A stretch of DNA of 15,783 nt from a virus. Below the pieces are notes generated by a model that was not told where the DNA came from, ran no database searches, and saw only the letters and a list, made by a program, of their open reading frames with translations. This document shows, piece after piece, positions 1 through 15,783 of this stretch (positions are counted from its first letter, which is position 1; the number at the start of each line of letters is the position of its first letter). The translations under genes were made by a program, and so were the position numbers. The DNA lies in IMG/VR virus record IMGVR_UViG_3300009666_000002; one strand, written 5' to 3'.

Positions 1-93
1 AGGCCCCGGAGGGCGTCGGCGAAGAACTTGTCAGGCCTGTAAGCCTCGGTCTCGTTCACAGAATCGGCGAAGGTACACGCCCTCGATACTCCA
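1..93. repeat. Left copy of an exact 93-bp terminal direct repeat (identical to 15691..15783). It marks a circular or circularly permuted genome with a 15,690-bp unit length.
   Basis: Direct comparison: bases 1..93 (aggccccggagggcgtcggcgaag...cctcgatactcca) match 15691..15783 exactly. The repeat lies inside a coding frame that continues across the junction. Confidence 0.95.
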
Positions 94-788
94 GCCAGGA
101 CCTTGTAGTGGTCCCCGGCGGCGTTGGGGACGTTGTTGGACTGGAGCACGTCGAAGCCATAGATCCGGCCTATCTGGCCGTTGAGCATGACGCCCTCCAC
201 CCCGGACCAAACCGGCGTGGTGATCGTGTCCTCCTGGAACATCACCTTAGTAACCCATGGAGGAAGGATGACCCAGCGGCCCTGGGTGGGCACGTTGGCC
301 TCATCGAGCTTCTGCTTAACCTCAAGCAGCTCCTCGGTTACGATGTCGGTCGTCCCGTCGAAGATCTTATCGGACCCGTCAGCCCCCACAGCAGAGCCGG
401 CCTGAGCGGCCATGATTCCGGCGATGTACTCGTCGGCGACCTCGGCGAGCCGATAGGCCGCGTCTCTCGTGGCGGATTCCATCAGCCGCACGTTCATCTG
501 AGCCTTGTCGATGTCCTCGATTCTGAAGTTGAAGTATTTGGCCTGGGTGATCTCCAGCGTGGTGGAGGCGTCGTCCAGCTCCTCGGGATCGCCGAGTCCG
601 GCCGTCTTGTCGTAGTTGTCGATCGTTATCGGGCCGTGAGCGGTGATCCTCACCGTGTCGCCCTTCCCCTTCACGTCGCCCTCATAGTCCCGGTTGATCA
701 CCGGGGCCTGGCCGTAAACCAGGGACTTCTGGAGACTCTGGAGGATTTGGGCGGCCCAAACCTCTCCTATGAAATTCGTTATTGCCAT
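1..788 (-). CDS. Major capsid protein, N-terminal 263 codons. P22-coat-like/HK97-fold. The gene wraps the circular junction and finishes at 15624..15690, for 284 aa in total.
   Basis: The ATG is the complement of 786..788, with GAGGT 9 nt upstream. My translation is MAITNFIGEVWAAQILQSLQKSLVYGQAPVINRDYEGDVKGKGDTVRIT...QGRWVILPPWV...YRPDKFFADALRGL, with no stop down to base 1. The N-terminal pattern (F-I-x-E-x-W...NRDYEG...GDTV-I) is typical of P22-coat-like capsid proteins. The gene sits directly after a scaffold gene. The ORF track lacks it because it is open at the window edge. Confidence 0.85.
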   Translation of the reverse strand, partial: MAITNFIGEVWAAQILQSLQKSLVYGQAPVINRDYEGDVKGKGDTVRITAHGPITIDNYDKTAGLGDPEELDDASTTLEITQAKYFNFRIEDIDKAQMNVRLMESATRDAAYRLAEVADEYIAGIMAAQAGSAVGADGSDKIFDGTTDIVTEELLEVKQKLDEANVPTQGRWVILPPWVTKVMFQEDTITTPVWSGVEGVMLNGQIGRIYGFDVLQSNNVPNAAGDHYKVLAGVSRACTFADSVNETEAYRPDKFFADALRG

Positions 789-794
789 GTGATC

Positions 795-1226
795 TTACCT
801 CAAAGTGCCCTCTTTCATCTGGCTCTTGATCTGATCCATGTGCTCGATGATTTCTTGCGGTTTCATGGCCTTCACGGCCTCGCGGGTTAGGGGTTTCTTT
901 GTCTCGCCCGCCGGATTGCCACCGCCCCCTACAGGCTCTTTGGGTCCGATCTCTTTCAGCAGCTTCTCACCGTCGGCCTTCAGCTCCGCCTCGGTCGTCC
1001 CCTGGAGGCGTCCCGCCAGGGAAGGAGGGAGTTTCAGGTCGGTGGCGATCTTCGCTTTCAGAGAGTCCAGGTTCTTGGATTCGTGATCAGCCAGCTTCGC
1101 TTTGAGATCGGCATTTTCAGCCTTGATCTCGTCGTAATCGGCATACTTCGCCTTCTCTCTGGCTACCCGTTCCTGGATGAAGCGGTCCACATCTGCCTGA
1201 GTGAATTTCTTTTCATCATCGGTCAT
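795..1226 (-). CDS. Capsid assembly scaffolding protein (DUF4355-like)
   Basis: 143 aa, highly charged and coiled-coil. The N-terminus (FTQADVDRFIQERVAREKAKY) is typical of phage scaffold proteins. It lies immediately upstream of the capsid gene. GGAGAT sits 8 nt before the ATG. Confidence 0.75.
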   Translation of the reverse strand: MTDDEKKFTQADVDRFIQERVAREKAKYADYDEIKAENADLKAKLADHESKNLDSLKAKIATDLKLPPSLAGRLQGTTEAELKADGEKLLKEIGPKEPVGGGGNPAGETKKPLTREAVKAMKPQEIIEHMDQIKSQMKEGTLR

Positions 1227-1288
1227 GGGTTTGAATCTCCGAAGTTCACGGCCTTCGTTTGCCTAATTGTAGATATTAACTAACATAC

Positions 1289-1296
1289 TATTTAAA
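1289..1296 (-). promoter_or_regulatory. Archaeal-type TATA box (TTTAAATA on the minus strand); putative late/structural operon promoter
   Basis: TTTAAATA lies about 62 nt upstream of the scaffold ATG in a low-GC intergenic region. The implied leader carries the GGAGAT ribosome binding site. Confidence 0.45.
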
Positions 1297-1471
1297 TGTT
1301 TGTCCTTTTTGTGAAAGCATTATAGTGGTGTCCCCGCAATGAAGGAAGATGATCAAAAACAAATTTTTACAAAAGATTGGTTAGCGCAGAGCCTACAATA
1401 ACCGATCGAGGCGAAGGCGCCCGCTCGAATCTGGGTTAGCGGAGGGGCCCCTGGATTTCGAAGAGCAAAAA

Positions 1472-1897
1472 TTACTGTGGAAGGGCGTTCGCGGCTCTAG
1501 TCAAATGCCCTGATCCACTTGTAATATACTGGCTTGCCAAAGTAATCTTGTCAGCATCCATCTCATCTACACCCATATAGCCATACAAACCCGCGTTTGC
1601 AAAATCATCCAGTGCGTAGCCAAATTCTTGTTTGGACGTTCTGAATGCATATGAAACGGAGCATTCATCATTCAATTTTTTCGCTTCGGTTGCATGACCA
1701 TACAAGGCTGCAAATCCGTCACTCAATGCATCAAAATCGAAGGCTTCTGATGCCGCAGTTATGTCTTCCATATCTTGGACCATAAACCCGGCGGCTACTG
1801 TGACAAGATTTATCCATTCTTGATCACCTTCCGATACTCCAAATGCAACTTGGCTTGCCAGACACAAACACAATATCGATGCGAGAACTATTTTCAA
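1472..1897 (-). CDS. Secreted protein of unknown function (Sec-type signal peptide); low-GC insert between portal and scaffold
   Basis: TTG start with GGAGGAG 5 nt upstream. The N-terminus MKIVLASILCLCLASQVAFG/VSEG has a charged n-region, a hydrophobic core and an A-x-G cleavage-like site. The mature part is acidic. GC content is visibly lower than in the flanking head genes. A T5 tract follows the stop codon directly. Confidence 0.7.
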   Translation of the reverse strand: MKIVLASILCLCLASQVAFGVSEGDQEWINLVTVAAGFMVQDMEDITAASEAFDFDALSDGFAALYGHATEAKKLNDECSVSYAFRTSKQEFGYALDDFANAGLYGYMGVDEMDADKITLASQYITSGSGHLTRAANALPQ

Positions 1898-1933
1898 TAT
1901 AACTCCTCCGATTCATATGTATGCGCCTTTGAC

Positions 1934-1941
1934 ATTATAAA
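1934..1941 (-). promoter_or_regulatory. Archaeal-type TATA box (TTTATAAT) for the secreted-protein gene
   Basis: The box sits about 23 nt upstream of the position just before the GGAGGAG ribosome binding site, and directly downstream of the portal stop codon. Confidence 0.4.
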
Positions 1942-1958
1942 TCTGTCGAGTTAGATAC

Positions 1959-3323
1959 TCAGAGGATGGGAGCCGAGCCCCCCTCCTCCTCTTCGATCCT
2001 CGCCACTTCGGCCTCCAGGTCCTCCTCGGATGCGTCGGGGTCCAGCCGGGCCAGGCTCCCTCTGGTTGAAGTCGCCCGCGCGCTACGTCTCGTTAGCTCC
2101 ACCTTTGCCGCTTCTACGGGGTCGACAGGAAGAGACGACCTCCACTCCAGGGAGACGTTGGTGAGGGCCTGAGATCCGCTCATCCGGGATGCAACCTCGA
2201 GCTCTGCAGTGGTCTTCAGGACCTCGACGAGCTTCGGCCTGATCCGGAGCCGGAGCCGGTTGACCTTCGCCAGCGTGGGGAGCATAAGGCGCTTGAGGGC
2301 GCTTCCCGACTCGGCCAGGCCGCTCTTAGTCTCACCGAAGGCAGCCGGGGACAGTTCGGCCATGACGTAGAGCTGAGAGAGAAGGGTCTCGATTTGGGTG
2401 AATGTGGCGCCCATCTGAGCATCCCACACCAGGATCTCGGGGTTCCGCTCGTCCTCGTTCAAGGCGATGTACTTCTCATCAGACGCCCACACGATCTCGC
2501 CCGTGATCGGATCTCGGACCCTGAGCCCCGACGGGCCACACATCCAGGGATCGGCGAAGGTGTCCAGGGTCCCCGAGACCTTGATCAGCCGCCGCTCGAT
2601 CTCCTCAACGATGTCGGAGACGTCTTTGAAGTCGTCCAGCCCGAAGACGCCGTCCCCTGCCTTCAGGTTGGAGAAGGGGAAGACCAGGAAGCCGGCCACC
2701 CCCGTCTCCTCCTCGGGCGTCAGGCTGGCGTATCTCGGGATGGTGGCCAGGTCGACGGGCTCTTTGATCTCTTTGCCGTCGGAAGTTAGCTCAAGGAGCC
2801 GGTGCTCTATCTTTCCGGGCTTGTGGATCTCCACCTTGACGTATCGGTCGTCGCCTTGTTTGACCTCCCAGGCCAGGGCATGAGCCGTGAAGGTTCCGGC
2901 GTCGTCGGGGTCCACTACCGGGAACCAGTGACGGGGATCTATCCGACTGATAACCCCACGCTTCCCATCCCATCGGGGTTTGAGGACCCCATCCCCGAAG
3001 GCGATCAGGTCGCTGAAGAGGTCGTAGACGAGGATCTCGAAGGCGTTATCGTCGGTGATCCGGTCCACCGTGGTCTGATCCACGGCCGTGATCTTCGGCG
3101 GGTTCCCCACAGCCAGGTCGCTGAAGAGGGTCATGATCCGCTTGAACCAGTTGACACGCATCTTGATGATCCGGGGGGCGTCGTCCTCGTTCAGTCCAGC
3201 GAAGACGAGATCGTGGTCTCCCTCCATTAGCAGCCGGTTCTTTGCATATCGAGCCAGCCGGTCTTTGTCTGGCGGCCACTTCTGGCCGGGCTTCAGAAAA
3301 TCTAACGTAGTGAATACGGTCAT
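1959..3323 (-). CDS. Portal protein
   Basis: 454 aa, immediately downstream of the large terminase with a 4-nt ATGA overlap. The N-terminus (KWPPDKDRLARYAKNRLLMEGDH) and acidic C-terminal tail are typical of SPP1-gp6-like portals. Size and position also fit. Confidence 0.8.
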   Translation of the reverse strand: MTVFTTLDFLKPGQKWPPDKDRLARYAKNRLLMEGDHDLVFAGLNEDDAPRIIKMRVNWFKRIMTLFSDLAVGNPPKITAVDQTTVDRITDDNAFEILVYDLFSDLIAFGDGVLKPRWDGKRGVISRIDPRHWFPVVDPDDAGTFTAHALAWEVKQGDDRYVKVEIHKPGKIEHRLLELTSDGKEIKEPVDLATIPRYASLTPEEETGVAGFLVFPFSNLKAGDGVFGLDDFKDVSDIVEEIERRLIKVSGTLDTFADPWMCGPSGLRVRDPITGEIVWASDEKYIALNEDERNPEILVWDAQMGATFTQIETLLSQLYVMAELSPAAFGETKSGLAESGSALKRLMLPTLAKVNRLRLRIRPKLVEVLKTTAELEVASRMSGSQALTNVSLEWRSSLPVDPVEAAKVELTRRSARATSTRGSLARLDPDASEEDLEAEVARIEEEEGGSAPIL

Positions 3324-4534
3324 CTTGAAGGCCTCCTAAAATCGGTAACACGGCGGCTCTTGCTGATCCTGTTAACCAGGTAGCGAAGGGTGTCGACGAG
3401 GTCGTCGTCTTCTTTGATGGGGGCGTCCTCTCCCCGCTCGGTGGCTTTGGGGTCCCATCGGTAGCCCTCCAGCTCCTCCTGGAGCATCTCGGTCGACGGG
3501 CCGACGAGGTAGAGCCATCCCTGGTCGAAGGCGTTGATCACCTTCTGGATCCCGTTGAGAACGTCGTTATCGGCCTGCTGGACGCCCTCGATTCCATCCC
3601 CCACAAACTGGAGCCGGTGAGCCTTCGCCGCCGGGTCGACGTCGATCGATGTCGGATACATCCCAGCCAGGAATTTCTTCAGGTCCTTCGAGACCTCAGC
3701 CGGGGACTTGTCGGCCTTCCGGTACTCTCCAGCGATGTACCACTTATCGGCGATCCGGAAGCCTTTCAGCATCGCCGTGGGGTGAGTGGCTCCAGGATCC
3801 ACAGCGACTCTCATCTCCTCAATCCGGCCGTCGGGGAGGCGGGGGATGCAGTGAATATCCCGGTTGAAGTTTCGGTAAACGGCGCCCTCAGCAGCCACCC
3901 ACAGGCCATCGATGTACCTCTGATAGAAGAGAGATCCTCGAGGCCCGAACTGGCGCTTCAGCTCGGCGACGTACAGGGGGTCCAGCCAGGGGTTATCCTC
4001 CAGCTCGAAATGCCAGGTCTTGAGATCCAGCTCGTCCTCCCGGTCGATCCATTTCTTCTTTAGATAATGAGCCGGCGGGCCCGGATTCGTCGTGAGGAAG
4101 AGCTGAGAGCCCGGCTCGGAGAGACGAGAGATCAGCATGTTGAAGAAGCTCTCAGGTGTTAGGCTCCCCTCATCGACCAGGGCACCGCCGAGGGTGAGGC
4201 CTGCGATCTTCGTGAAGGCGCTCTCGTCGTTGGCTCCCTCACAAAGGATATGCCGCCCGTATATGGTGGCGACCTTGAGGGACCGCCGGTACTCGAAGTT
4301 TTGAGGGCCTACCAGGGAGGCGATAGGCAGAAGGACGTTCCTCTCCAGGCTCGTGAGGGTCTTCCCGGTCATCAGCAGGTTGACCCCGGCCGGAGCCTCG
4401 AGGACGGCCCGGAGCCACCGGACGTTAGCCCCGACGGTCTTCGCCGATCTGACAGCGCCGTGGAGAATGTTCACCCTTGCATCGGAACCGAGGCAGAAGT
4501 CCCGCTGCTTTCCGGTGGGAACCTGGAAGCTCAA
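3320..4534 (-). CDS. terL: Terminase large subunit (PBSX/terminase_6-like)
   Basis: 404 aa. It has a Walker A-like GAVRSAKT, a Walker B-like ALVDEGS, and a C-terminal RNase-H-like nuclease region (VAVDPGATHPTA ... DDLVDTLRY). It overlaps the small-subunit gene by 4 nt. Confidence 0.88.
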   Translation of the reverse strand: MSFQVPTGKQRDFCLGSDARVNILHGAVRSAKTVGANVRWLRAVLEAPAGVNLLMTGKTLTSLERNVLLPIASLVGPQNFEYRRSLKVATIYGRHILCEGANDESAFTKIAGLTLGGALVDEGSLTPESFFNMLISRLSEPGSQLFLTTNPGPPAHYLKKKWIDREDELDLKTWHFELEDNPWLDPLYVAELKRQFGPRGSLFYQRYIDGLWVAAEGAVYRNFNRDIHCIPRLPDGRIEEMRVAVDPGATHPTAMLKGFRIADKWYIAGEYRKADKSPAEVSKDLKKFLAGMYPTSIDVDPAAKAHRLQFVGDGIEGVQQADNDVLNGIQKVINAFDQGWLYLVGPSTEMLQEELEGYRWDPKATERGEDAPIKEDDDLVDTLRYLVNRISKSRRVTDFRRPSR

Positions 4535-4944
4535 GTCTCCGCCTCCTCGCCCATCTTCTCAAACAATATGCGGATCTCTCCGCCCTTCGCCGATGGGTCG
4601 GTGGACTCTTCCAGCCGCCGCTTATCGATGCCGATCGCAAAGCCGGTCATCAGATATTGAAAATCGCGGGGGTTATCGCAGGCTTTCAGAAGCTCTCGGC
4701 CTTTGTTCAGGGCCTCGCCGATCAGTTTGATCCTGTCTTCGGAGGCGTAACAGGACTTGATAAGAGCGGCCCTTTTTGTGGTGGAACGTTCCCCTAGATC
4801 CAGGCCGTTCCTGGAAGCGATCCGGGATATCGTTCCCGTCCCTCTCTGAAACTCTTCGGCCACGTCCCGGACGGACCGGCCCGCCTTCAGGGCTTCCAGT
4901 ATCTCGGCCTCTTCATCTTCGAATACGGGACCGCCTTTGCTCAT
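4531..4944 (-). CDS. terS: Terminase small subunit candidate (N-terminal helix-turn-helix)
   Basis: 137 aa, translationally coupled to terL. It has an HTH-like segment (RSVRDVAEEFQRGTGTISRIASRNG). The call rests mainly on position and size. Confidence 0.6.
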   Translation of the reverse strand: MSKGGPVFEDEEAEILEALKAGRSVRDVAEEFQRGTGTISRIASRNGLDLGERSTTKRAALIKSCYASEDRIKLIGEALNKGRELLKACDNPRDFQYLMTGFAIGIDKRRLEESTDPSAKGGEIRILFEKMGEEAET

Positions 4945-4994: not shown

Positions 4995-7583
4995 CTAATC
5001 CGGACAATTGAACCCCCTCGAATATCCCTGTTGCTCCAGCATCCCGATAGCCATCACTGCCTTATCCTTCGGCCACTCCTTCTGCACCTTCATCAACTGC
5101 TTGACCGTCGGGACTTGGCCTCCTCCGATGTCCAAGTAGGCGGGGATGCTCAAGCCGAAGATGGTATTCGCTTCGGTCTTTTCGGGGACCGCCGCCACGT
5201 TTGGCTTCGGGGGCCGTGGAGGTGAGCATACTGTCAATCTGTCGATACTGTCACTACAGTCACCGGTGTCACCACTGTCACCTAGTTTGGGCTCCTTTTT
5301 AGTAACATGATTCCCACAAGAAGATGATTTATCTTCTGATCTAGTGTTACGTTTATCCTCTCGATCCTCAGTGTTACGAGTGACAGTATGGACAGTATCG
5401 ACATTATCGACGGTATAGACAGTTCCGACATTAAGAACGACCTTAACCGTAGATTCCCCTCTGGGGTTCTGGATCTCACAATATTCGACGGTCCCATCCC
5501 CGGCCATGGTATCGAGGTATTCCTGAAGCTCTTTCGCCTTGATCTTCACATGCCTGGATATTTCCCGCTTGGTAGAGACGCCGCCATGCCTCTTCAAAAA
5601 CGCTATGATCCGGTCGATAATGTTCCGCTCCAGGTCCCGGCCAACCATGTCATAGACGGCCATGGCCATGGGCTGATAGTACTCGTCCACAAGCCGACAA
5701 GCCTCGATGACGTACTCGAGCCGGATAGGTCGTCTCCATGCCGGATCGAAGTCAGAAGATCCCAGCTCGAAGAGCATCGCCAGTTTAGCCACCAACGGAA
5801 CCAACCTGCTGTGAATCTGCATCTCGTTGGCGTCGTCTCTCCTCTCGATCTCCCTTGCCCGCTGCTTTTGCCACCGGGTCCAGTACTCTGCCGCCTCTTT
5901 ACTGAAATTAAGCTGTTGTCTCACCATCTCGGAGACGGTTTTTGACATGGCAGCCAATTGTCCCTTGACGACGAGCTCCAGCTCGGAGTTCATCGCCTCG
6001 CCTTCCTCCAGGGGAAGCCATCGCTCTTTGGGTCTCCTCGGGAAGTGATAGATGAACCTCGCCATGAAGCCGCTGAGGGTGTCGTTGATCTCGGTGTTAG
6101 CCGCTAACGAGGAGTCGGTCGTCGCCCACAGGACGTTGAGATAGGGGTCGTCCACGTTAAACTCGTTTTTACTCTTCGTCCGCCTGTTGGTCCTCAGCTT
6201 CCGGTGAATGGGTCGGCAATCGTACAACTGCATCAGCGAATCTTTGAAGCCCCTCATGTAGTCCCGTCTCATGGTCGACAAGATTCCGGCAGCCTCGTCT
6301 CTCACCCACGGGGCATGGGGGCATTCATCGAGGTGCTCGATGAAGGCTTCCGGCGAGAACTCTGTCGGGACTGCATTGATCGCCGTCCCCGGTCGGTGAT
6401 CGTTGAGAAGAGACTCGGTGATGTCGGCGACGGTGCTCTTGCGGCTGAGGCTCGATCTTCCGGCTATGAAGATGTAGAGGTTTGGATAGACCGGCCCCTG
6501 TCGCAGCTTGACCCATATTTTCTTATCGGCAATCACAGCCAGTTGATAGAGCCCCCCAGCGAGCCAGTAATCGGGGTAGGCGTCCGATACGTCTCGCCCG
6601 TATGCGATATAGCGGGTTAGATAGTGGTTCCCAGGCAGGTTAAGCTCGAATTTTGGGCCGTGATCCATCTTCCTGGAGGCTAGCTCCTCCTCGGTGATCG
6701 GCTTTGCCTCCTCGATCCCACCGGTGTTCCCCTTCGGCGCCGCTGCTGATTGGATCGCTCTTCTGATTGTGGTGTCTCTGTAGTCGTCGGCACCCCTCTC
6801 TCTCCATTTCTCCTGTGGGCTGGAGTCCATCAAAGATCTGATCTCGGACTCGGAGAACCCCTCTTCCCACAGCCTGGCGCAGAGGTGGAACTCGTGGTCC
6901 GATCGATCGCCGACACTCGCTGGAGAATAGTATCTATCCTTAAACTTCGGGTCGTCATCGCAGAGGGCTGCGAATCTCTCGGCCAGATCATCGCCCACTT
7001 TTCCCCCCTCGCCGTGGGTGGTGGGGGCCTCCTGGGAGGCGCTCCATATCCGGCGGTGTACTCGATCGAGTGCCTCGTCGAAGTCCTCTATATCAGAGGT
7101 TGCGCTGTCCAGCCTGTGGCCGGTAAAGGTGAGATACCGACCCCCGTCGTACATCTCGATATTACCCTTTTTGCGTCCCTCTCGCCGGAGCTTCCCATAT
7201 CCCAGGACTCGGAGCCCCTCACCGCTTGGAGAGATCTCAACGTAGCTTCCCAGCTCCTCGACGATCTCCAAGGCCCAGGGCTCGATCTTTGCCCCATTGA
7301 CGCAGTGGTCTAGGTCGACCCCGGCGAGAGCCTCCATAGCGTTGAGAGAGAGCCCTATACCGTCGAAGCCGCCCTTCTGATAGGCCTGGACTGCCTGGAC
7401 AAATGTCATCCATTCTGCGGGATCGTGGGCGTCGATCTTCTTCCCGTCTTCGTTAAATGGCGGTTTGGTCCATTTTCCATTGACGAGGGTATATTTCCAC
7501 AGAATCCAGCCTTCTACCGCCCTCAGTGCATCGGGTACATTTCGATGCCAGACGTCGAGGGCGATGGGTCGAGGGGCGTTCAT
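4995..7583 (-). CDS. Replication protein: archaeo-eukaryotic primase (prim-pol) N-terminal domain, PriCT-like domain, DUF3987/D5-like helicase-type NTPase, winged helix and a repetitive C-terminal linker
   Basis: 862 aa. AEP motifs are present: GVDLDHC (DxD), YVEISPSGEGLRV (SGxGxH-type motif with R in place of H) and IEMYDGGRYLTFTGH. There is a PriCT-like DRSDHEFHLCARLWEEGFSESEI. The DUF3987-like core has the P-loop-like IAGRSSLSRKST. A wHTH-like IIAFLKRHGGVSTKREISRHV follows. The tail contains TV-x and GD-x tripeptide repeats. Confidence 0.85.
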   Translation of the reverse strand: MNAPRPIALDVWHRNVPDALRAVEGWILWKYTLVNGKWTKPPFNEDGKKIDAHDPAEWMTFVQAVQAYQKGGFDGIGLSLNAMEALAGVDLDHCVNGAKIEPWALEIVEELGSYVEISPSGEGLRVLGYGKLRREGRKKGNIEMYDGGRYLTFTGHRLDSATSDIEDFDEALDRVHRRIWSASQEAPTTHGEGGKVGDDLAERFAALCDDDPKFKDRYYSPASVGDRSDHEFHLCARLWEEGFSESEIRSLMDSSPQEKWRERGADDYRDTTIRRAIQSAAAPKGNTGGIEEAKPITEEELASRKMDHGPKFELNLPGNHYLTRYIAYGRDVSDAYPDYWLAGGLYQLAVIADKKIWVKLRQGPVYPNLYIFIAGRSSLSRKSTVADITESLLNDHRPGTAINAVPTEFSPEAFIEHLDECPHAPWVRDEAAGILSTMRRDYMRGFKDSLMQLYDCRPIHRKLRTNRRTKSKNEFNVDDPYLNVLWATTDSSLAANTEINDTLSGFMARFIYHFPRRPKERWLPLEEGEAMNSELELVVKGQLAAMSKTVSEMVRQQLNFSKEAAEYWTRWQKQRAREIERRDDANEMQIHSRLVPLVAKLAMLFELGSSDFDPAWRRPIRLEYVIEACRLVDEYYQPMAMAVYDMVGRDLERNIIDRIIAFLKRHGGVSTKREISRHVKIKAKELQEYLDTMAGDGTVEYCEIQNPRGESTVKVVLNVGTVYTVDNVDTVHTVTRNTEDREDKRNTRSEDKSSSCGNHVTKKEPKLGDSGDTGDCSDSIDRLTVCSPPRPPKPNVAAVPEKTEANTIFGLSIPAYLDIGGGQVPTVKQLMKVQKEWPKDKAVMAIGMLEQQGYSRGFNCPD
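5227..5279. repeat. Array A: six units of about 9 bp ending in (C)TGTC (for example GATACTGTC), inverted relative to array B
   Basis: The sequence reads catactgtc aatctgtc gatactgtc actacagtc accggtgtc accactgtc. It lies inside the replication gene, where it encodes GD-x repeats. Confidence 0.8.
5382..5435. repeat. Array B: six tandem 9-bp units, consensus GACAGTATC, the reverse complement of the array A units
   Basis: The sequence reads gacagtatg gacagtatc gacattatc gacggtata gacagttcc gacattaag. A 102-bp AT-rich core (5280..5381) separates it from array A. That core contains AGTGTTACG twice, at 5343 and 5370. Confidence 0.8.
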
Positions 7584-8775: not shown

Positions 8776-8797
8776 GTGTCCCAATTGTGCCCCATTA

Positions 8798-9313: not shown

Positions 9314-9332
9314 AAGATAACATTCTCCTGTA

Positions 9333-9340
9333 TATTTAAA
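9333..9340 (-). promoter_or_regulatory. Archaeal-type TATA box (TTTAAATA) upstream of the 73-aa ORF
   Basis: Exact consensus octamer. The 19-nt spacing to the ATG is slightly short for a strictly leaderless transcript. Confidence 0.4.
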
Positions 9341-9560
9341 TAGATTACTCAAACAAGAACGTGAAAGGCAATCGCTTGTTCTCCGATCAATTCACCAAGC
9401 ACGACGCTATCTCAGAAGCCGCTAAAATCGAGCGCTGAACGCAAACTGATTATTTTATATAATCTCTGTAATCATCATTATAACGCGTATATATTTAATA
9501 ATGTATTTAGAATACTAAAATTGATAGAATATAAATAGGCGAAAGCTATTTAATCGTTAC

Positions 9561-9587: not shown

Positions 9588-9671
9588 CCGTGGTGAGTAA
9601 AGCCTTCTCGAAAAGGATGAGGCCGCCTATGGGCGGGTGGGACGAAGTAAAGAAGGGTTCACCATGAGCAC

Positions 9672-10335: not shown

Positions 10336-10336
10336 A

Positions 10337-10732
10337 TTAGCGAAGCTCAAGCGCCTCTGCCTTCAGCTTTCGGGCTCTCGCCGTGGCTGCCTCTCGGGTC
10401 ATCTTTCGAGGAGAGCCGATGTACTTGTTAACGACCTTGTCCCCCGCCTTCCAAGATGCGAAAAAGTACTCATAGGTCTTCGGCCCCTTCGCGGTGATCT
10501 TCTCCACCTGGCCGAGGTATACCGTCAACGCCTCCAGCCGCGCCGCATCCCACAGAGCCTCAGCCTCGCCCCCCAGCCTGGCCGCCTCCGCCTCTCTCTC
10601 CCTCGCCGCCGGTTCCAGCCCCCTGATAGCCCGGAGCTTTGCCGCCTCGTCTCGCAGCTTCCGGGCCTCCTCTCTCAAGGCCTTGATCTCCTCCCCGCTT
10701 GTGGTTTCGTAAACGATCTTCTGCCTCGCCAT
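10337..10732 (-). CDS. Hypothetical coiled-coil protein with a C-terminal Y-x-Y-F-x-A-S-W-K-x-G-x-K-V-x-x-K-Y-I-G motif
   Basis: 131 aa. The N-terminal half is charged and Ala/Arg/Glu-rich. The C-terminal segment is KTYEYFFASWKAGDKVVNKYIGS. High GC. It is divergent from the plus-strand wHTH gene. TTTATATG lies 23 nt upstream of the ATG. Confidence 0.55.
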   Translation of the reverse strand: MARQKIVYETTSGEEIKALREEARKLRDEAAKLRAIRGLEPAAREREAEAARLGGEAEALWDAARLEALTVYLGQVEKITAKGPKTYEYFFASWKAGDKVVNKYIGSPRKMTREAATARARKLKAEALELR

Positions 10733-10740: not shown

Positions 10741-10786
10741 GTTATGTGACTATCCCATATAAATTTAGTGGCGAGAGTCACATAAC
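10741..10786. promoter_or_regulatory. 11-bp perfect inverted repeat (GTTATGTGACT / AGTCACATAAC) enclosing the TATA box (10756..10763) of the 131-aa gene; putative operator in a divergent promoter region
   Basis: The arms are at 10741..10751 and 10776..10786. The 24-bp spacer contains catataaattt (TTTATATG on the minus strand). Confidence 0.6.
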
Positions 10787-10884: not shown

Positions 10885-11436
10885 ATGAGGACATTAGAAG
10901 ACCAGCCCCTAGCGGATGCCAGAGGCCGATCCACGACCAAGGATAAAATGGCCCTTCTGGCGGATAAGCTTTTCGATGAGGACCCAAGAATTAAGCATCT
11001 TTTAACCGAGGTCCTCCAGCAGCAGGAGGATGAGATCCGTCGGCTCCAGTGCATCTCCCAGCAACGACAGAGGGAAATTCAGCGCCAGGAAGATGAGATC
11101 CACAAGCTCAGGGAGGAGCTGGACGCCTTCCGGGAAGAGGTCGCCCTCGAACGAGCATATGACCGCCAGAGGATCTCCAGGCTGGAGAATCCCATCGCTT
11201 CGCCCTCCCCACCACAAGAAGGGACTAAGACCGCCGCCAGGATCGAAGAGATGATCGGGATCCTGAAAAGACGACAGGGCCGGGCCGCCTTTTCGGAGCT
11301 GAAAGAGGATCTGAAGCTTACTGACTCCCAGTTTTCGAAGCTCATTAAAAAGCTCGATATGCGCCGGTTCGACGTGCAACGCCGCCCCCACAGCGGAAAG
11401 GAGAAAGTTCTGATCCTGAGGCAACAGATCGGATAG
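10885..11436 (+). CDS. Coiled-coil plus C-terminal winged-helix DNA-binding protein; the only plus-strand gene and a putative switch regulator
   Basis: 183 aa with AGGTGA 7 nt before the ATG. It has heptad-like Q/E/R-rich repeats, then ARIEEMIGILKRRQGRAAFSELKEDLKLTDSQFSKLIKKL (wHTH-like). The longer antisense ORF (11002..11610) looks like reverse-strand noise. Confidence 0.6.
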   Translation: MRTLEDQPLADARGRSTTKDKMALLADKLFDEDPRIKHLLTEVLQQQEDEIRRLQCISQQRQREIQRQEDEIHKLREELDAFREEVALERAYDRQRISRLENPIASPSPPQEGTKTAARIEEMIGILKRRQGRAAFSELKEDLKLTDSQFSKLIKKLDMRRFDVQRRPHSGKEKVLILRQQIG

Positions 11437-11737: not shown

Positions 11738-12448
11738 TCACCCAACATTTTGTATTATCTTTCCTACACCATTAATCAAATCGAGAACTTCTTCTTCGGT
11801 TGGATCACGAGCTTTTTTATGATCACACAAATTTCGTATATCAGCCAATTTTTGTATTTCCCTCCAAGTTGGAATGTCGTACACACTATGTGCTCTAAGT
11901 GGCTCGTTTAAATCTGCGATGGTTGGGTCTTTTTTAGAAATAGGAATACAACGATTGGCTGCTACTTGTTGGAGGTGGCTTTCAAGCACTACTGCAGCCA
12001 CGGTTCCAGCTGCTCTTAAATGCCCGTTTTTATGTAGATGCATAGCGGCATCAAGCTCCGAATTAAAAAGATCTGCTTGTAGAATATCTTTAATTTTAGC
12101 TAGCGTATCATCTAAAGTATCTGCTGAGGATGATAATATTTTTATTTGAACCAAAAAATTTATTGTAATATTTAGATTTGCGGAAGGCGTTATTTTAATA
12201 GTGGCTGGCTCCGGCAACCTTTCGCAGAGTCTTTCGATGGTATGGTATCGCCGTTCAAAATCCTCGGCGCGATGTGGAATTAGTTGTTTAATAACCAAAA
12301 ACGATCTTGTGTACCAACTCTCGTATTCGAACATGAAATTTAAATGGTCTTTCAAATCATCCTCACTTTTTAAATACTCCTGTAGTTTTATACCATCTGA
12401 TATTAGTTCATTCAAACCTTCTCTTATTTCTAGATAATTGTTTCTCAT
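11738..12448 (-). CDS. HEPN-domain protein candidate (C-terminal R-N-x3-H motif), low-GC cargo gene
   Basis: The C-terminal region ELDAAMHLHKNGHLRAAGTVAAVVLESHLQQV ... REIQKLADIRNLCDHKK fits the HEPN helix pattern and the Rx4-6H motif with N after R. The N-terminal ~130 aa are helical and of unknown family. The track ORF starts at a TTG (12466); the ATG at 12448 (MRNNYLEI) is more likely. Confidence 0.55.
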   Translation of the reverse strand: MRNNYLEIREGLNELISDGIKLQEYLKSEDDLKDHLNFMFEYESWYTRSFLVIKQLIPHRAEDFERRYHTIERLCERLPEPATIKITPSANLNITINFLVQIKILSSSADTLDDTLAKIKDILQADLFNSELDAAMHLHKNGHLRAAGTVAAVVLESHLQQVAANRCIPISKKDPTIADLNEPLRAHSVYDIPTWREIQKLADIRNLCDHKKARDPTEEEVLDLINGVGKIIQNVG

Positions 12449-12507
12449 AATAATTACGTTAATCAATCTAGAATGCTATAAGTTTTCCGGGTTCTAATGT
12501 AGTTTAT

Positions 12508-12951
12508 CTACTTCTCCAGCTCGCCGCTTTCCAGGCAGTCTTTGATGTACTGCTGGACGGTCCGGTTTTTGTATCCTACCTGCTGAGCTATTGCCTGTCG
12601 GTTCCGCTCTCCGCCTCTCCACAGCTCTTTGATCTTCTCTTGTGTCGCGGTGTCCTCGGATAGCCTCTGAATTGTGGGTTTAACCTCGGGTTTAACCTCG
12701 GGTTTAACGTCTTGTTTAACCGGTTTAACGTCCTGTTTAACTTCCGGTTTAACCCCCAGCCTGCTGTCAATCAGCTTTATAAGCTCTTTTTTATCTAATA
12801 CGATTAGGCCTGTACCTTCAGGGATTGCGACGTTAAAATATTGGTTTAACGCATCCCTCACGATATCGCTTTTGGACTTCTCGGAGCGTTTAACCTCTTC
12901 GTCGATCAAGGTCTCCAGCTCCGCCGAGATCTTGACCCCTAAGAATGGCAT
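12508..12951 (-). CDS. RHH (N-terminal), VKP-rich tandem repeat linker and C-terminal HTH DNA-binding protein
   Basis: The N-terminus is LGVKISAELETLIDEEVKRSEKSKSDIVRDALNQYF (RHH pattern). The central part is VKPEVKQDVKPVKQDVKPEVKPEVKP. The C-terminus is NRQAIAQQVGYKNRTVQQYIKDCL (HTH-like). Confidence 0.7.
   Translation of the reverse strand: MPFLGVKISAELETLIDEEVKRSEKSKSDIVRDALNQYFNVAIPEGTGLIVLDKKELIKLIDSRLGVKPEVKQDVKPVKQDVKPEVKPEVKPTIQRLSEDTATQEKIKELWRGGERNRQAIAQQVGYKNRTVQQYIKDCLESGELEK
12676..12756. repeat. Seven tandem units (six of 12 bp, one of 9 bp), each containing the heptad GTTTAAC; coding (VKPx repeats)
   Basis: The sequence reads gggtttaacctc gggtttaacctc gggtttaacgtc ttgtttaac cggtttaacgtc ctgtttaacttc cggtttaacccc. 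Three more GTTTAAC copies follow at 12844, 12887 and 12952. Confidence 0.9.
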
Positions 12952-13012
12952 GTTTAACTAATTGTTAAACGATCGGTTAAATATCTATGCCAGGTTAAAC
13001 GGATCGTTTAAT
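12952..13012. promoter_or_regulatory. Promoter/operator region of the RHH-HTH gene, with GTTTAAC/GTTAAAC heptads in inverted and direct orientation around a TATA-like ATATTTAA
   Basis: A GTTTAAC-taatt-GTTAAAC palindrome (12952..12970) abuts the ATG. Other copies are GTTAAAT (12976), GTTAAAC (12994) and GTTTAAT (13006). ATATTTAA (minus strand, 12977..12984) lies 25 nt upstream of the ATG. Confidence 0.6.
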
Positions 13013-13052
13013 GAAAGGTAAAACCACGGCCCGGGAAAACTCGGTTCCGCCT

Positions 13053-13274
13053 TTAAGGGCCATAGTCATGCAACCAAGCTTGATACCTGAGAAATTCCAG
13101 CTCTTTTCTGAGAAGCTCGGTTGTGGCTTCAAGCTCGTTAATCTTCTTTTTCAGGGCCACCCTTTCCTTCAACAGGACGGTGGTTCCCCGTTTCTCTCGG
13201 TCCTCTTTCAGCCGCTGGGAGACGATCCTCGTCATGTCGGCGCGTGAGAACTCGAGGACCTCGGTCAGTTCCAT
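13053..13274 (-). CDS. Small coiled-coil protein, hypothetical; last gene of the structural operon
   Basis: 73 aa. It overlaps the upstream gene by 10 nt and has a charged heptad-like sequence. T-tracts (GTTTTCC, GGTTTTACC) follow its stop. Confidence 0.5.
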   Translation of the reverse strand: MELTEVLEFSRADMTRIVSQRLKEDREKRGTTVLLKERVALKKKINELEATTELLRKELEFLRYQAWLHDYGP

Positions 13275-14074
13275 TTATCCCGCTCCTTTTCGTGGGGGCT
13301 CAAGGTCATTGTGTGACGGCACCCGACATGTTCCAGGCCGGCGGCTCGGGCCTCGGCGAGGGTCGGATATCCTGGGGTCTCTCCTGTTAACGAGAGGGTC
13401 CTCCCCTGCCAGGGAACGCACAAGGGGCAGGCCTTAGAATGCGTCGAGACCACCACCAAATCATAGCCATGCTCCAAGAGCCTGATCCGAGTCCCCTCTC
13501 TGAAGCTCTGCATGGAGGCGTTGTGGACGGCCATCTTCGAGTAGTTGGCCATATCCCAACGACGGCCCGCCTTGTCGATGAAGCCGGTAACACCTCTGGA
13601 GGCTAAGTTCTCTTTCATCCGTCTGGCCGCCGTATCGACGCTATCGATCCCCAGGACCACACTCTGAGTATACTCGAGCTGGAGAGCTCGAAATAGGTCG
13701 TCCACCTGTCGCCCTATGGTGAGATCGACCGCTCCTAGCCTGGAATAGGTCGCTTCGGCGAGAGCATGGACCGCCTCTTGGTGAAGGGTTCCGAAGCCCG
13801 CCGAGAGGTGGGTCGAGAAGGCCATCCCATCGGCATAGGCAACACCTTCGCGGTAGAGGTAGGGGATCGCGTCGTCGCACCACTCACGGCCACCGACGAG
13901 AAGCTTATTTCGAGCTGCCCTTATGTTCCGTTGAACGGCCCGGTAATAGGCAGGATCGCCACCTTTGAGGAGAACCCGGTTTATCTCCGCCTGGATCTTC
14001 CGGTCGCCGTTCTCATAGAGCTGGATGAGCCGGAAGGCCTGGTCTTCGGTGAGCGTGGCCGGGTTAACCGTCAC
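13265..14074 (-). CDS. Minor head protein, MuF/SPP1-gp7-like head morphogenesis family
   Basis: 269 aa. The C-terminal signature is THSKACPLCVPWQGRTLS...GLEHVGCRHTM (C-x-x-C ... W-x-G ... H-x-x-C-R-H/C), as in the phage Mu F/SPP1 gp7 family. It is translationally coupled to its neighbours. Confidence 0.75.
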   Translation of the reverse strand: MTVNPATLTEDQAFRLIQLYENGDRKIQAEINRVLLKGGDPAYYRAVQRNIRAARNKLLVGGREWCDDAIPYLYREGVAYADGMAFSTHLSAGFGTLHQEAVHALAEATYSRLGAVDLTIGRQVDDLFRALQLEYTQSVVLGIDSVDTAARRMKENLASRGVTGFIDKAGRRWDMANYSKMAVHNASMQSFREGTRIRLLEHGYDLVVVSTHSKACPLCVPWQGRTLSLTGETPGYPTLAEARAAGLEHVGCRHTMTLSPHEKERDKWN

Positions 14075-14691
14075 CCGCCTACACCCCCGAGAAGCAGGAC
14101 CCGATACAGCTCTTCCCCGTCCAGGCCGGCCTTCGGGGCGACTTTGACGACCTCGTAGATCGGGGAGTCCTCGCCGTTGATCACCAGCTTAATTTGGGCG
14201 CCAAACTCCAGGGGCTCAAGGCAGAAGAGCCGGCCCTCGGCCTGCATGATCTGCTGAGAGTATTCTTCATCGACCACCTTGAGGTACGTCGACCTTTTGG
14301 CCTCCCATCGGCATGGGAACTCGACCCACTCGCCGGGGAGCTCCTCTTCTGTGGTGGGGTCGGCCGCCACAACACGACAGTTTAGCTCCTCTTCCCCGAT
14401 GTCGGTCGTGATCTCGGTTACAGTGTCGAATTGTTTAGACGTCACCATCTCGGTGGTTCCCCAGGGAGGGCCGAAGCCTTCTAGGGTATCGCTTTGGGGC
14501 TCTCCGTCCAGGGTCCCAGTTATGGTTACGTTGAGGGCGATCGACCCCGAACTGATCTCATACTTGACCTTGAAGGGGTCGTCCATCGAAAAAGAAGGGG
14601 ATAGGGTGAGCGTTGCGAGGACTGGAGCCCAGCCGTAAATGACGGGGGAGTCCTCATATTTGGCGGTCTGGCTCAAGTAGCCGGCGATCAC
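14071..14691 (-). CDS. Virion protein; the C-terminal half resembles head-closure/head-tail joining proteins
   Basis: 206 aa, between the adaptor and the MuF-like gene with 4-nt overlaps on both sides. The C-terminal pattern (WVEFPCRWEAK...AEGRLFCLEPLEFGAQIKLVINGEDSPIYEVVKV) recalls the head-tail joining protein family. The N-terminal ~100 aa are beta-rich and of unknown family. Confidence 0.4.
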   Translation of the reverse strand: MIAGYLSQTAKYEDSPVIYGWAPVLATLTLSPSFSMDDPFKVKYEISSGSIALNVTITGTLDGEPQSDTLEGFGPPWGTTEMVTSKQFDTVTEITTDIGEEELNCRVVAADPTTEEELPGEWVEFPCRWEAKRSTYLKVVDEEYSQQIMQAEGRLFCLEPLEFGAQIKLVINGEDSPIYEVVKVAPKAGLDGEELYRVLLLGGVGG

Positions 14692-15185
14692 CGAGACCTA
14701 GCCCCCTTCGCCAGGTAGGGCTCCAGCAGCCTGTAAGCCGCCCAGGACCTCAGAGGAGTCCCCTTGATCCCTCCTCCCTGGAGAGATCCGTCGTACTCTT
14801 CCCACAGCTCGCCGAGTTTGAAGTTGGTTACACCTCCTTCCTGGAGCTTCCGCCTCTGATCGTTGGACGTGTCCAGCCTCGCCAGAGCCTCCTCGCAGAC
14901 TGCATCTTTGATAGCCTGGGGAATCACGGGGATATCATCGGCGTCTCGGTCGGCGACCACCCACCCCCGGCGCGTCTTGATCAGTCGCGGCCACTGGAGG
15001 GGCTGAGTTGTAATATCATATTCAAATTTTTTACCGATGAAAGGGAGACTATCCACAAGCCCAGAGACGTACACTAAAAGAGCGTCCTGCTCATCACCAG
15101 AGAGAGCATCCCAGGCCACGGCATCAGGACGATCGACCACGTAAGCATCCATCTCATCGGAGGTAACGTATTCGGATTCGGCCAT
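14688..15185 (-). CDS. Head-tail adaptor/connector (gp6-like, DnaT-like family)
   Basis: 165 aa. The pattern AWDALSGDEQDALLVYVSGLVDSLPFIGKK...QPLQWPR is characteristic of gp6-like head-tail connector proteins. It is in the position expected after the capsid and accessory genes. Confidence 0.7.
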   Translation of the reverse strand: MAESEYVTSDEMDAYVVDRPDAVAWDALSGDEQDALLVYVSGLVDSLPFIGKKFEYDITTQPLQWPRLIKTRRGWVVADRDADDIPVIPQAIKDAVCEEALARLDTSNDQRRKLQEGGVTNFKLGELWEEYDGSLQGGGIKGTPLRSWAAYRLLEPYLAKGARSR

Positions 15186-15203
15186 GAATTTAAACCAGGG
15201 TTT

Positions 15204-15226
15204 AGAGGGGGCATTTCGCCCCCTCT
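15204..15226 (-). terminator. GC-rich intercistronic hairpin (9-bp stem, 5-nt loop) between the 121-aa gene and the adaptor gene; likely attenuator
   Basis: AGAGGGGGC-atttc-GCCCCCTCT. There is no downstream T-tract on the minus strand. Its position after the capsid and 121-aa genes suggests stoichiometric down-regulation of the connector genes. Confidence 0.45.
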
Positions 15227-15246
15227 GGTGTCAGTCGGTTATCAGC

Positions 15247-15612
15247 TCAAGGGAGAGCGTAGCAATCGATCGTTCCCGCGATCGAAGTACCGGCGATGTC
15301 GATGTGGATCGTTCCGTCGGCCTGGAGGTATCGAGCCGTCTCGATCGGGCCTATGCAGACCCGCTCAGCTCCACCAGCTGCCTCGAAGGTGAGGTCGCCG
15401 AGTCCCCGCCTGAAAGCAGGGTGAGCGGTTCCGGCCACGATCTTGATCGTGTCGGCAGCCGTGGCGGCCGAGAGCTCGAAGCTCAGGATCAGCCTCTTGA
15501 AGTTGGCCCCCTCGGCGATCACGTGATCGTTGTCCTTGTCGATCGTGTCGGCGGTTTCGTGGTTGGCGAAAGCCCCGTTAAGCTCGTTTACGGTAATTTC
15601 AGATCTTACCAT
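15247..15612 (-). CDS. Hypothetical virion protein (possible capsid decoration/accessory protein)
   Basis: 121 aa. GGTGGTG lies 5 nt upstream of the ATG, 12 nt after the capsid stop. Gly/Ala/Thr/Ile-rich and beta-like. The functional guess rests on position only. The overlapping 166-aa plus-strand ORF is R/S-rich antisense noise. Confidence 0.55.
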   Translation of the reverse strand: MVRSEITVNELNGAFANHETADTIDKDNDHVIAEGANFKRLILSFELSAATAADTIKIVAGTAHPAFRRGLGDLTFEAAGGAERVCIGPIETARYLQADGTIHIDIAGTSIAGTIDCYALP

Positions 15613-15623
15613 GATTCACCACC

Positions 15624-15783
15624 TCAGCTCGGAGCACAGGTCAGAACGCAGAGACATTCAGGATCGATGACCTTCGCGCCGTAGCAATGGAGGCCCCGGA
15701 GGGCGTCGGCGAAGAACTTGTCAGGCCTGTAAGCCTCGGTCTCGTTCACAGAATCGGCGAAGGTACACGCCCTCGATACTCCA
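15624..15783 (-). CDS. Major capsid protein, C-terminal end. 15624..15690 holds the unique last 21 codons plus the stop; 15691..15783 duplicates 1..93.
   Basis: The frame continues from base 1 across the junction: ...FADALRGL-HCYGAKVIDPECLCVLTCAPS-stop (TGA, complement of 15624..15626). 788 + 67 nt = 855 nt = 284 codons plus a stop. Confidence 0.85.
   Translation of the reverse strand, partial: GVSRACTFADSVNETEAYRPDKFFADALRGLHCYGAKVIDPECLCVLTCAPS
15691..15783. repeat. Right copy of the exact 93-bp terminal direct repeat
   Basis: Identical to 1..93. Confidence 0.95.

Follow-up and report, generated by a model that had tools for sequence, protein, structure and literature searches.

Capsid-forming, tail-borrowing satellites are known in bacteria. 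According to He et al. (2025, bioRxiv 10.1101/2025.02.11.637232), phage-inducible chromosomal islands that form capsids (cf-PICIs) release tail-less capsids that then join phage tails, and an adaptor together with a connector sets the tail specificity. The present text concerns a viral sequence from metagenomic data, IMG/VR record IMGVR_UViG_3300009666_000002, whose whole length of 15,783 nucleotides is referred to as the window. It appears moderately probable that the window belongs, as a complete and plasmid-like member, to a family of tail-less elements of Methanotrichaceae (acetoclastic methanogens) that form capsids, and that the heads of these elements join the tails of a helper virus. 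Among Archaea, the window is most likely the first counterpart to the capsid-forming, tail-borrowing satellites of bacteria; its family had not been described before. Tail borrowing and the identity of the helper are the parts of this reading that we infer by analogy.

Other described systems share some of these features. The satellite phage P4 of Escherichia coli can persist as a plasmid and has a primase-helicase replicase, and its helper supplies virion parts. P4 has no capsid, portal, or terminase gene and takes all structural proteins from P2, whose capsid is resized, whereas the window encodes its own head and only the tail is missing. The Streptomyces satellites MiniFlayer and Mulch encode their own encapsidation machinery, as the window does, but they lack key replication genes, whereas the window has a replicase; their host is bacterial and their sequences are unrelated. 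In Archaea, a 2025 survey by a leading archaeal-virus group gives pSSVx and pSSVi as the only satellites described previously, both on spindle-shaped viruses. These two, the haloarchaeal SRCEs, and the putative Asgard element NMV2S are plasmid-derived replicons that have been proposed or shown to use the virion of a helper. pSSVx, pSSVi, and the SRCEs ride spindle-shaped viruses; NMV2S, which is linked with the head-tailed NMV2, is without capsid, portal, and terminase. All of them measure 2.7-9 kb, contain one or two genes from a helper at most, and have no HK97 capsid, portal, or terminase, unlike the window, whose structural genes constitute a full HK97 head module. A first-pass annotation made from the letters of the window had proposed a candidate capsid-forming satellite or virus-plasmid hybrid and knew of no archaeal precedent for such a satellite. 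Full-text literature searches, outside whose reach lay the methanogen-virus compendium of Medvedeva et al. (2023), likewise found no description of a capsid-forming satellite of an archaeal tailed virus.

The window is complete. Bases 1-93 match bases 15691-15783 exactly, leaving 15,690 nt of unique sequence. The capsid open reading frame (ORF) crosses the junction (788->1, then 15690->15624) and reaches a full length of 284 aa. Since the capsid gene is continuous over the 93-nt overlap, the window is a closed circular or concatemeric replicon, and the terminal repeat is the assembly overlap of such a molecule closed by the assembler. The closed genome claimed in the first-pass annotation is further supported by three independently closed relatives: L075 (14,511 nt with a 127-nt overlap, 14.4 kb unique), L003 (IMGVR_UViG_3300009360_000021; 9,263 nt with a 136-nt overlap, 9.1 kb unique), and an 11,923-nt circular variant recovered from two datasets as L114 (CAZNGI010000023.1) and L115 (JGI 3300028193 Ga0265594_1002796). 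In other words, at least four members of the family, the window included, assemble as closed circles in different datasets. All ORFs of the window are intact, no tRNA gene is present in it, and 19 of its 20 genes lie on the minus strand, the gene for p183 being the only one on the plus strand.

One long operon encodes the full set for a DNA-filled, closed head, consisting of a TerS-like protein, TerL, portal, scaffold, capsid, p121, Ad1, p206, and MuF. The features of this structural part, with the E values of their matches, are as follows.

1..93, no strand: terminal direct repeat, the same as 15691-15783; inside the capsid gene, with the frame unbroken over the junction
1..788, minus strand: major capsid protein, N-terminal 262 codons (phrog_267 1.9e-58, PF25209 3e-12); remainder at 15690->15624
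795..1226, minus strand: head scaffolding protein, 143 aa (phrog_233 4e-15; DUF4355)
1472..1897, minus strand: p141, with a Sec-type signal peptide and a low GC content of 0.44, between portal and scaffold; no family or PDB match
1959..3323, minus strand: portal protein, 454 aa (SPP1_portal 6e-14; phrog_533 5.7e-34)
3320..4534, minus strand: TerL, 404 aa (phrog_2 1.8e-42; Terminase_3, Terminase_6N, Terminase_6C)
4531..4944, minus strand: TerS-like HTH protein, 137 aa (weak HTH_38/HTH_23, under Pfam cut-offs); its stop overlaps the terL start
13053..13274, minus strand: p73, a small coiled-coil protein that closes the structural operon; no significant matches
13265..14074, minus strand: MuF-like minor head protein, 269 aa (Phage_min_cap2 4.3e-27; phrog_581 1.1e-33)
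14071..14691, minus strand: p206, an N-terminal Ig/Fn3-like beta-sandwich and a C-terminal domain homologous to the connector that follows Ad1 in tailed relatives
14688..15185, minus strand: Ad1 head-tail adaptor, 165 aa (phrog_477 7.5e-15; PF20557 9.7e-12)
15247..15612, minus strand: p121, small beta-sandwich directly after the capsid gene (phrog_24894 1e-17)
15624..15783, minus strand: 3' end of the capsid gene and the repeated 93 nt; stop codon at 15624-15626

The capsid protein can be aligned with those of phages over its full length and is 48% identical to that of phage D6E and 43% identical to that of the Methanosarcinales virus vir515. The HTH protein at 4531..4944 is a putative TerS by its position, its HTH, and its overlap with terL. 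A TerS-like gene upstream of terL is kept in all relatives, and in the window it is preceded by a TATA-like box, TTTATATA, at ~33 nt; boxes of this kind precede the window's operon-first genes by 25-40 nt. All core genes are under purifying selection (dN/dS 0.07-0.43 in several pairwise comparisons; 0.14-0.24 for Ad1 and 0.14-0.33 for p206) and are working genes, not debris. The small p73 is likewise constrained (dN/dS 0.09-0.17) and is 88-89% identical in L029 and L059.

In scans against Pfam and PHROGs, no ORF of at least 50 aa in the window matched a tail tube, tape measure, baseplate, fiber, lysin, or integrase. A prohead protease and an HNH endonuclease were not found in these scans either; a scaffold protein is present instead. 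The scans bear out the earlier description of a capsid-assembly and packaging set that comes with its own prim-pol replicase and without tail genes, and tail genes are also missing from an integrated relative of 13.9 kb that could be delimited fully. Neither these scans nor tblastn with five integrases of relatives detected an integrase or an integrase remnant in the window. MiniFlayer is likewise not known to carry an integrase.

Where does the structural module stop? The siphovirus vir515 (BK063672, Caudoviricetes sp., 36.5 kb) and its IMG/VR relatives L105 and L109 carry the same block in the same order as the window. In vir515 this order is capsid, phrog_24894 protein, Ad1, a 99-aa connector, a Minor_capsid_2-like protein, two small ORFs, a tail terminator (PF12691 1.8e-10), major tail protein, tape measure, and distal tail. 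The window retains the first four of these functions, the fourth as the C-terminal domain of p206, and continues with MuF, p73, and regulators. Because the p206 C-terminal domain is homologous to the connector that follows Ad1, the structural module of the window ends at the boundary between the separately assembled head and tail pathways, at the point where tail genes begin in tailed relatives. Apart from the capsid, the phrog_24894 protein is 32% identical between vir515 and the window and Ad1 is 37% identical, the vir515 Ad1 preceding tail genes; the connector domain is common to both. Unlike the window, vir515 goes on to encode a tail, from the terminator and tube through the tape measure to the distal parts; it is 2.3x larger, and its TerL is only 27% identical to that of the window. 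It is an element of a different kind and a candidate for the helper or the ancestor.

The assignment of p206 comes mainly from its C-terminal half, which is strongly conserved in an alignment of 14 family members. A hidden Markov model (HMM) of this half, run against a small local set of 1,466 ORFs from the collected tailed-virus loci, matched 14 ORFs, all of them directly downstream of Ad1 (E 4e-6 to 2e-4). Five of these 14 proteins of ~100 aa were scanned against PHROGs and Pfam. The 99-aa protein of vir515 matched phrog_3881 'head-tail connector' (1.7e-8) and also phrog_793, that of L098 matched phrog_3881 'head-tail connector' (4e-4), and that of L110 matched phrog_793 'head-tail adaptor' (5.6e-4) and gave a weak match to Hc1; no significant match was obtained for the remaining two. 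By a homology that is transitive through tailed-virus connectors, p206 is predicted to be a neck protein of the connector type to which an Ig-like domain has been added. It is syntenic behind Ad1 in all lineages, and the 'possible head-closure protein' of the first-pass annotation can now be pinned to its C-terminal domain. A direct scan of this domain against Pfam and PHROGs found no match, and p206 as a whole is also without a Pfam, PHROG, or PDB match. A p206 profile search of a whole library of 1.84 billion cluster representatives returned a family of only 13 clusters and did not reach the tailed-virus connectors; the distant clusters are large repeat proteins with cadherin/Ig-like domains, in which only the N-terminal domain was matched. 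The AlphaFold2 (AF2) model of p206 is confident over residues ~15-120 (blocks at 59-96, mostly 76-96) and of low confidence elsewhere. A relationship of p206 with the phrog_556 protein of vir515 was considered and rejected after a negative profile comparison, the true partner being the neighboring 99-aa gene.

Could a tail be hidden among the remaining proteins? Together p206, p121, p141, and p73 amount to 541 aa, less than any known tail would need. Fold and profile checks of these 206-, 121-, 141-, and 73-aa proteins, p121 and p206 by structural modeling, found no tail or lysis function. In Foldseek searches of the PDB, neither the p206 nor the p121 model gave a significant fold match (best E ~0.03, TM <0.5), and a tail, fiber, or decoration fold is not claimed for either. 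Sequence and profile searches of the PDB with p206, p121, Ad1, p141, and p242 also returned nothing. The p121 model has a pLDDT of 89, and its BFVD matches are uncharacterized Caudoviricetes proteins of 113-129 aa (TM 0.60-0.78). A homologue occupies the same post-capsid position in vir515, and p121 is retained in the 9.1-kb L003, which is without the adaptor; p121 is probably head-associated and not a tail part. The p141 gene is patchy: it is present in some relatives only, and the same slot holds a MuF-like 301-aa ORF in L011 and L075. Given this distribution and its low GC content, p141 is accessory cargo, a moron-like protein of the secreted type, and not a core gene; it is under purifying selection (dN/dS 0.26).

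A separate observation concerns the history of p121. It is 84% identical to the copy in a low-GC lineage of the family, where the capsid is 55% and Ad1 40% identical, yet only 57-65% identical to many closer relatives. The gene lies at 3129-3494 in L092, where its GC content equals the local background, and at 3363-3728 in L003, a pattern of allele mosaicism.

In IMG/VR, a close portal occurs at 44 loci, a close replicase at 13, and a related Ad1 at 61. The window belongs to a large family of 9-16 kb elements in anaerobic-digester metagenomes; the GenBank phage set and PLSDB contain no close relatives. The core order terS-terL-portal-(variable slot)-scaffold-capsid-p121-Ad1-p206-(MuF) is kept, and the replication and accessory modules are interchangeable among relatives, some of which carry a ClpP/SDH-type protease. 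A second lineage with a GC content of 0.39-0.44 has the same architecture with a portal 45% and a capsid 55% identical to those of the window. Contigs of both lineages reach ~16-18.5 kb, barring two-copy concatemers of 26.5 and 21.4 kb. Some complete relatives are smaller. L003 contains terS, terL, portal, scaffold, capsid, p121, one RHH gene, and a replicase 86% identical in DNA to that of the window; it has no Ad1, p206, or MuF and is the most reduced head-only replicon seen in the family. L114/L115 is without Ad1, p206, large replicase, and integrase and has a MazE-like antitoxin.

Several relatives show peculiarities of their own. The 26.5-kb L005/L023 (IMGVR_UViG_3300033170_000022) holds non-identical tandem copies, with capsids 92% and 81% identical to that of the window, and reflects either two related elements in true tandem or an assembly that is chimeric between strains. 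The 18.6-kb contig of L029 ends in a gene for a 1,102-aa DUF11-repeat surface protein (14895-18203, minus strand), which could be host flank or cargo. A 315-aa ORF of L075 was considered as an integrase and rejected, as it encodes a PD40 beta-propeller protein. The replication modules of the family are swapped among a PrimPol/DUF3987, a PrimPol/D5_N/DUF5906, and a PF27228 type. The last is represented by L113 (12047-14359, in JARFPK010000054 of Candidatus (Ca.) Methanocrinis natronophilus), whose replicase contains PF27228 (MTBMA_p00010_2nd), a domain that owes its name to a plasmid protein of Methanothermobacter.

When one genome per GTDB species was scanned, relatives turned up in two metagenome-assembled genomes (MAGs) of Methanotrichaceae, in Ca. 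Methanocrinis natronophilus Mx, and in one Synergistetes MAG. L057, on a 38.8-kb Methanotrichaceae MAG contig, has the head module as far as the MuF-like gene, together with genes for a D5-like primase and a tyrosine integrase, and adjoins genes for leucyl-tRNA synthetase (LeuRS) and an aminotransferase. This LeuRS is 92% identical to that of Methanotrichaceae, 85% to that of Ca. Methanocrinis natronophilus, 72-73% to that of Methanothrix, and 62% to that of Methanosarcina. L061, on a 44.3-kb JGI contig that L033 overlaps at 100% identity, is an element of ~13.9 kb bounded by the 19-nt direct repeat AATCCCGGCTCCGGCCCTG, the left copy of which is the 3' end of a tRNA-His gene. Between the repeats lie genes for an integrase, a ClpP/SDH-type protease, TerL, portal, scaffold, capsid, p126, Ad1, p197, and a MuF-like protein, with no tail gene in the delimited element; ordinary cellular genes lie beyond. 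L004 adjoins a tRNA-Ser and L089 a tRNA-Leu gene, and L060 stands at the end of a 99.5-kb contig; these three carry integrases as well. Furthermore, the highly purified culture of Ca. Methanocrinis natronophilus Mx contributes a 14.5-kb contig (JARFPK010000054) with a full head module, and most named homologues come from Methanothrix or Methanotrichaceae. Because relatives are integrated beside archaeal chromosomal genes and one occurs in the Methanocrinis culture, the host is archaeal and belongs to Methanotrichaceae. The archaeal host that the first-pass annotation had read from promoter architecture is thereby strengthened. The Synergistetes (L055) and Methanoregulaceae labels of single homologues are regarded as binning noise, since the integrated copies point to Methanotrichaceae.

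In L061 a 233-nt copy (89% identical) of the 3' end of the integrase gene lies at 13355-13587, 19 bases past attR. It was considered as an att site and rejected, the real att being the 19-nt repeat at tRNA-His; the copy is the remnant of an older element, and the tRNA-His site has been used repeatedly.

The family thus has integrative, tRNA-targeting forms and integrase-less episomal forms, the window being of the episomal kind. The label 'integrase-less' given in the first-pass annotation holds for the window and not for the family, in which several members have integrases. Integrases and att junctions, which had been expected to speak against a satellite, are read as marks of the integrative form and not as a refutation.

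How close is this organization to that of a cf-PICI? As the preprint describes them, cf-PICIs, for example EcCIEDL933 and KpCIDSM30104, occur in Proteobacteria and Firmicutes and measure 10-18 kb; the window with 15,690 nt lies within this range, and its relatives span 9.1-16 kb. By the same account, the window resembles a cf-PICI in having its own replication and regulation modules (PrimPol/DUF3987, three RHH proteins, and one weak-wHTH protein) and in having no lytic genes and no complete tail module. The cf-PICI packaging module given there (capsid, portal, adaptor, connector, TerS, TerL) is present in full, with the connector recognized through p206 homology and TerS by position and HTH. 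An integrase, part of the cf-PICI description, is absent from the window, while relatives do integrate with one; the prohead protease and HNH endonuclease of that description are also absent, a scaffold replacing the protease-processed capsid protein. The regulators are of RHH/wHTH type, and the general Pfam and PHROG scans reported no AlpA-family match. Unlike cf-PICIs, the window has an archaeal host, is plasmid-like, and carries a connector with an extra Ig-like domain. The two are tied through generic head-module families only and are set side by side here by description, not by direct sequence comparison. In other words, the window would work like a cf-PICI without being a member of the cf-PICI family.

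Other classes of element also fit incompletely. The window has the capsid, portal, and terminase genes of an autonomous member of Caudoviricetes and none of the tail genes. It has a replicase, as in a phage-plasmid, together with a virion set that is without a tail and no integrase. A gene transfer agent (GTA), a cluster that sits in the chromosome without replicating, includes tail genes, and packages host DNA at random, is a poor description of a closed episome with a replicase and a TerS-like gene and without tail genes.

Since the gene set, adaptor and connector included, is like that of a cf-PICI, its mechanism can be likened to cf-PICI tail capture. The element would persist as an episome, possibly silenced by the divergent p183 regulator. 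When a co-resident tailed virus replicates, it would build its own capsids and package its own DNA with its own terminase. Ad1 and p206 would then close the portal, the filled heads would join pre-assembled helper tails of the siphovirus type, and release from the cell would be supplied by the helper. Suggestive evidence for vir515-like siphoviruses as the helper comes from the 32-43% identity of the shared block, a GC content (~0.57 in vir515) similar to that of the window, derivation of vir515 from the same digester metagenome series, and the occurrence of vir515-like viruses in six metagenomes that contain the elements.

Several observations weigh against tail borrowing. The connector assignment of p206 is transitive, comes from a small local database without a direct Pfam, PHROG, or PDB match, and concerns a domain of low AF2 confidence, and the extra Ig-like domain of p206 is missing from the connectors of tailed viruses. 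The complete relatives L003 and L114/L115 are without Ad1 and p206, so the adaptor is not universally required and the evidence for tail capture is weaker. The link to vir515 is suggestive, at 32-43% identity and with six shared metagenomes, and the GenBank host label of vir515 is 'Methanosarcinales', not Methanotrichaceae. Finally, the absence of lysis and egress genes cannot be firm, as such genes are poorly catalogued in Archaea.

Some of these points would suit an autonomous, infectious, tail-less virus of sheathed methanogens, in which the neck formed by portal, Ad1, and p206, with its Ig-like domain, docks on the host and delivers the DNA with no helper. This explanation is unlikely, even if it survives better than the others. 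It would account for the Ig/Fn3-like domain added to p206 and missing from the ~100-aa connectors of tailed relatives, for the confinement of the p206 family, with only 13 clusters, to these elements, for their own replication, regulation, and sometimes integration functions, and for the abundance and diversity of the family, and it needs no helper. It would further ask that the Ig-like domain of p206, p121, or the secreted p141 recognize the sheath or cell ends of Methanothrix and Methanocrinis. No virus of the HK97 type is known to infect without a tail, and no recognizable lysis or egress function accompanies these heads. Furthermore, the genes stop exactly at head completion as practiced by viruses that build heads and tails separately, and the minimal relatives without Ad1 and p206 are better explained by graded helper dependence than by a neck that acts as an injection device.

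A helper might also be dispensed with if the window were a segment of a multipartite virus or the partner of a chromosomal tailocin-like cluster, the tail residing on a dedicated, co-evolving replicon or host locus. The complete and conserved head-only content, the lack of an identified helper, and the presence of several elements in one Methanotrichaceae MAG (L056, L057, and L114 in CAZNGI01) are compatible with such an arrangement. It is nevertheless improbable, because the integrated copies are single ~13.9-kb tRNA islands beside host genes with no adjacent tail cluster, and because complete tailed relatives that have both head and tail modules exist. We know of no multipartite member of Caudoviricetes.

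A defective remnant, a domesticated GTA-like head module, or a plasmid with a captured, non-functional virus fragment, none of which would yield particles with element DNA, is a considerably more remote prospect. The tail genes are missing, as they would be from a remnant, and the integrase 3' remnant beside attR of L061 shows that decay in place does occur within the family. Decay is difficult to reconcile with ORFs that are all intact, with structural genes at dN/dS 0.07-0.43, and with the same architecture in two lineages at just 45-55% protein identity. Moreover, TerS/TerL and a replicase are encoded by the element itself, no fewer than four closed circles come from different datasets, and the contigs were recovered in IMG/VR.

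That the element is of bacterial origin, a cf-PICI or a small phage, and owes its archaeal link to a binning artefact can be set aside as very improbable: for it speak the relative L055, assigned to a Synergistetes MAG, the occurrence of one p206 homologue in a MAG of Methanoregulaceae, and best capsid matches among isolates to Firmicutes phages, and against it the integrated relatives contiguous with archaeal housekeeping genes (LeuRS at 92% to Methanotrichaceae and 62% to Methanosarcina), the relative in the highly purified Methanocrinis culture, the Methanothrix and Methanotrichaceae origin of most named homologues, the replicase domain of a relative named after a methanogen plasmid protein, and TATA-like boxes at archaeal spacing.

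For a tail-borrowing satellite that persists as a plasmid, the rest of the window would provide replication, regulation, and cargo. Its features are as follows.

4995..7583, minus strand: replicase, 862 aa, PrimPol N-terminus and DUF3987 helicase-like part (phrog_13901 1e-46, phrog_1829 8e-44, PF13148 7e-25)
5240..5433, no strand: inverted repeat (33-nt arms) and 9-nt tandem repeats in the low-complexity 3' part of the replicase gene
7860..8321, minus strand: RHH-type DNA-binding protein, 153 aa (weak phrog_795, 'partition protein ATPase', and phrog_8682, E 3e-4 to 8e-4)
8356..8784, minus strand: RHH (CopG/Arc-like) protein, 142 aa (phrog_2639 Arc-like repressor 2e-5; weak RHH_1)
9092..9352, minus strand: p86, GC 0.40; no matches in Pfam or PHROGs
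9591..9664, plus strand: DUF3800-X RNA motif (Rfam RF02984, 75.1 bits against a gathering threshold of 38.2, E 1.8e-15)
9672..10274, minus strand: DUF3800 protein, 200 aa, GC 0.36 (PF12686 7.8e-16; PADLOC PDC-M04A 6.3e-10)
10337..10732, minus strand: p131, which opens the leftward unit at the divergent promoter; no matches
10741..10786, no strand: palindrome with 23-nt arms between the divergent p131 and p183, overlapping a TATA-like sequence
10885..11436, plus strand: p183, coiled coil and weak winged helix (HTH_34 9e-4, under the Pfam cut-off)
11738..12466, minus strand: p242, cargo of GC 0.36; no Pfam, PHROG, PADLOC, or PDB match
12508..12951, minus strand: regulator with RHH and C-terminal HTH, 147 aa (RHH_1 1.9e-6)
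12952..13024, no strand: GTTTAAC/GTTAAAC inverted repeats upstream of the RHH/HTH gene, a candidate operator

The replicase is 76-86% identical in relatives that have different head modules, such as L003, and ~30% identical to primases of haloarchaeal plasmids and Bacillus phage-plasmids. The repeats within its gene are a candidate replication origin. The two RHH proteins at 7860..8321 and 8356..8784 are paralogous in architecture. At the divergent promoter, p131 is 63-88% identical in relatives and has a TATA-like box ~32 nt upstream, and p183 is conserved and divergently oriented in relatives. From this layout p183 is a candidate master repressor, and the palindrome a candidate operator of a two-way genetic switch. 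The (KPEV)n linker of the RHH/HTH regulator is encoded by 12-nt, GTTTAAC-containing repeats at 12676-12754, and the occurrence of the same motif in the inverted repeats upstream of its gene suggests possible autoregulatory sites.

Homologues of p86 with 35-43% identity are found in L029, L055, and L057. The DUF3800 protein is a candidate defense gene in low-GC cargo. The RNA motif lies 8 nt past the DUF3800 stop on the opposite strand, and the pair lies in a cargo island of low GC (0.36-0.40). An Rx4H motif (RNLCDH) was noticed in p242 by eye only. The low-GC cargo, comprising the DUF3800 gene with its RNA motif, p242, and the secreted p141, probably benefits the host or the element, for example in defense.

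Biogenic methane and digester performance both owe much to Methanothrix and Methanocrinis, and to our knowledge no cultured virus is available for either. Satellites of tailed viruses are well known in bacteria, and an archaeal counterpart would fill a gap. If the tail-borrowing reading is true, Archaea too evolved the strategy of an own head and a stolen tail, drawing on unrelated genes and taking integrative as well as plasmid-like forms; if the elements were instead infectious without a tail, they would represent a virion architecture unknown in the HK97 lineage. The relative in the assembly of the existing, highly purified Methanocrinis natronophilus culture offers an experimental entry. 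Elements with candidate defense cargo would move genes among these methanogens and modulate virus pressure in digesters.

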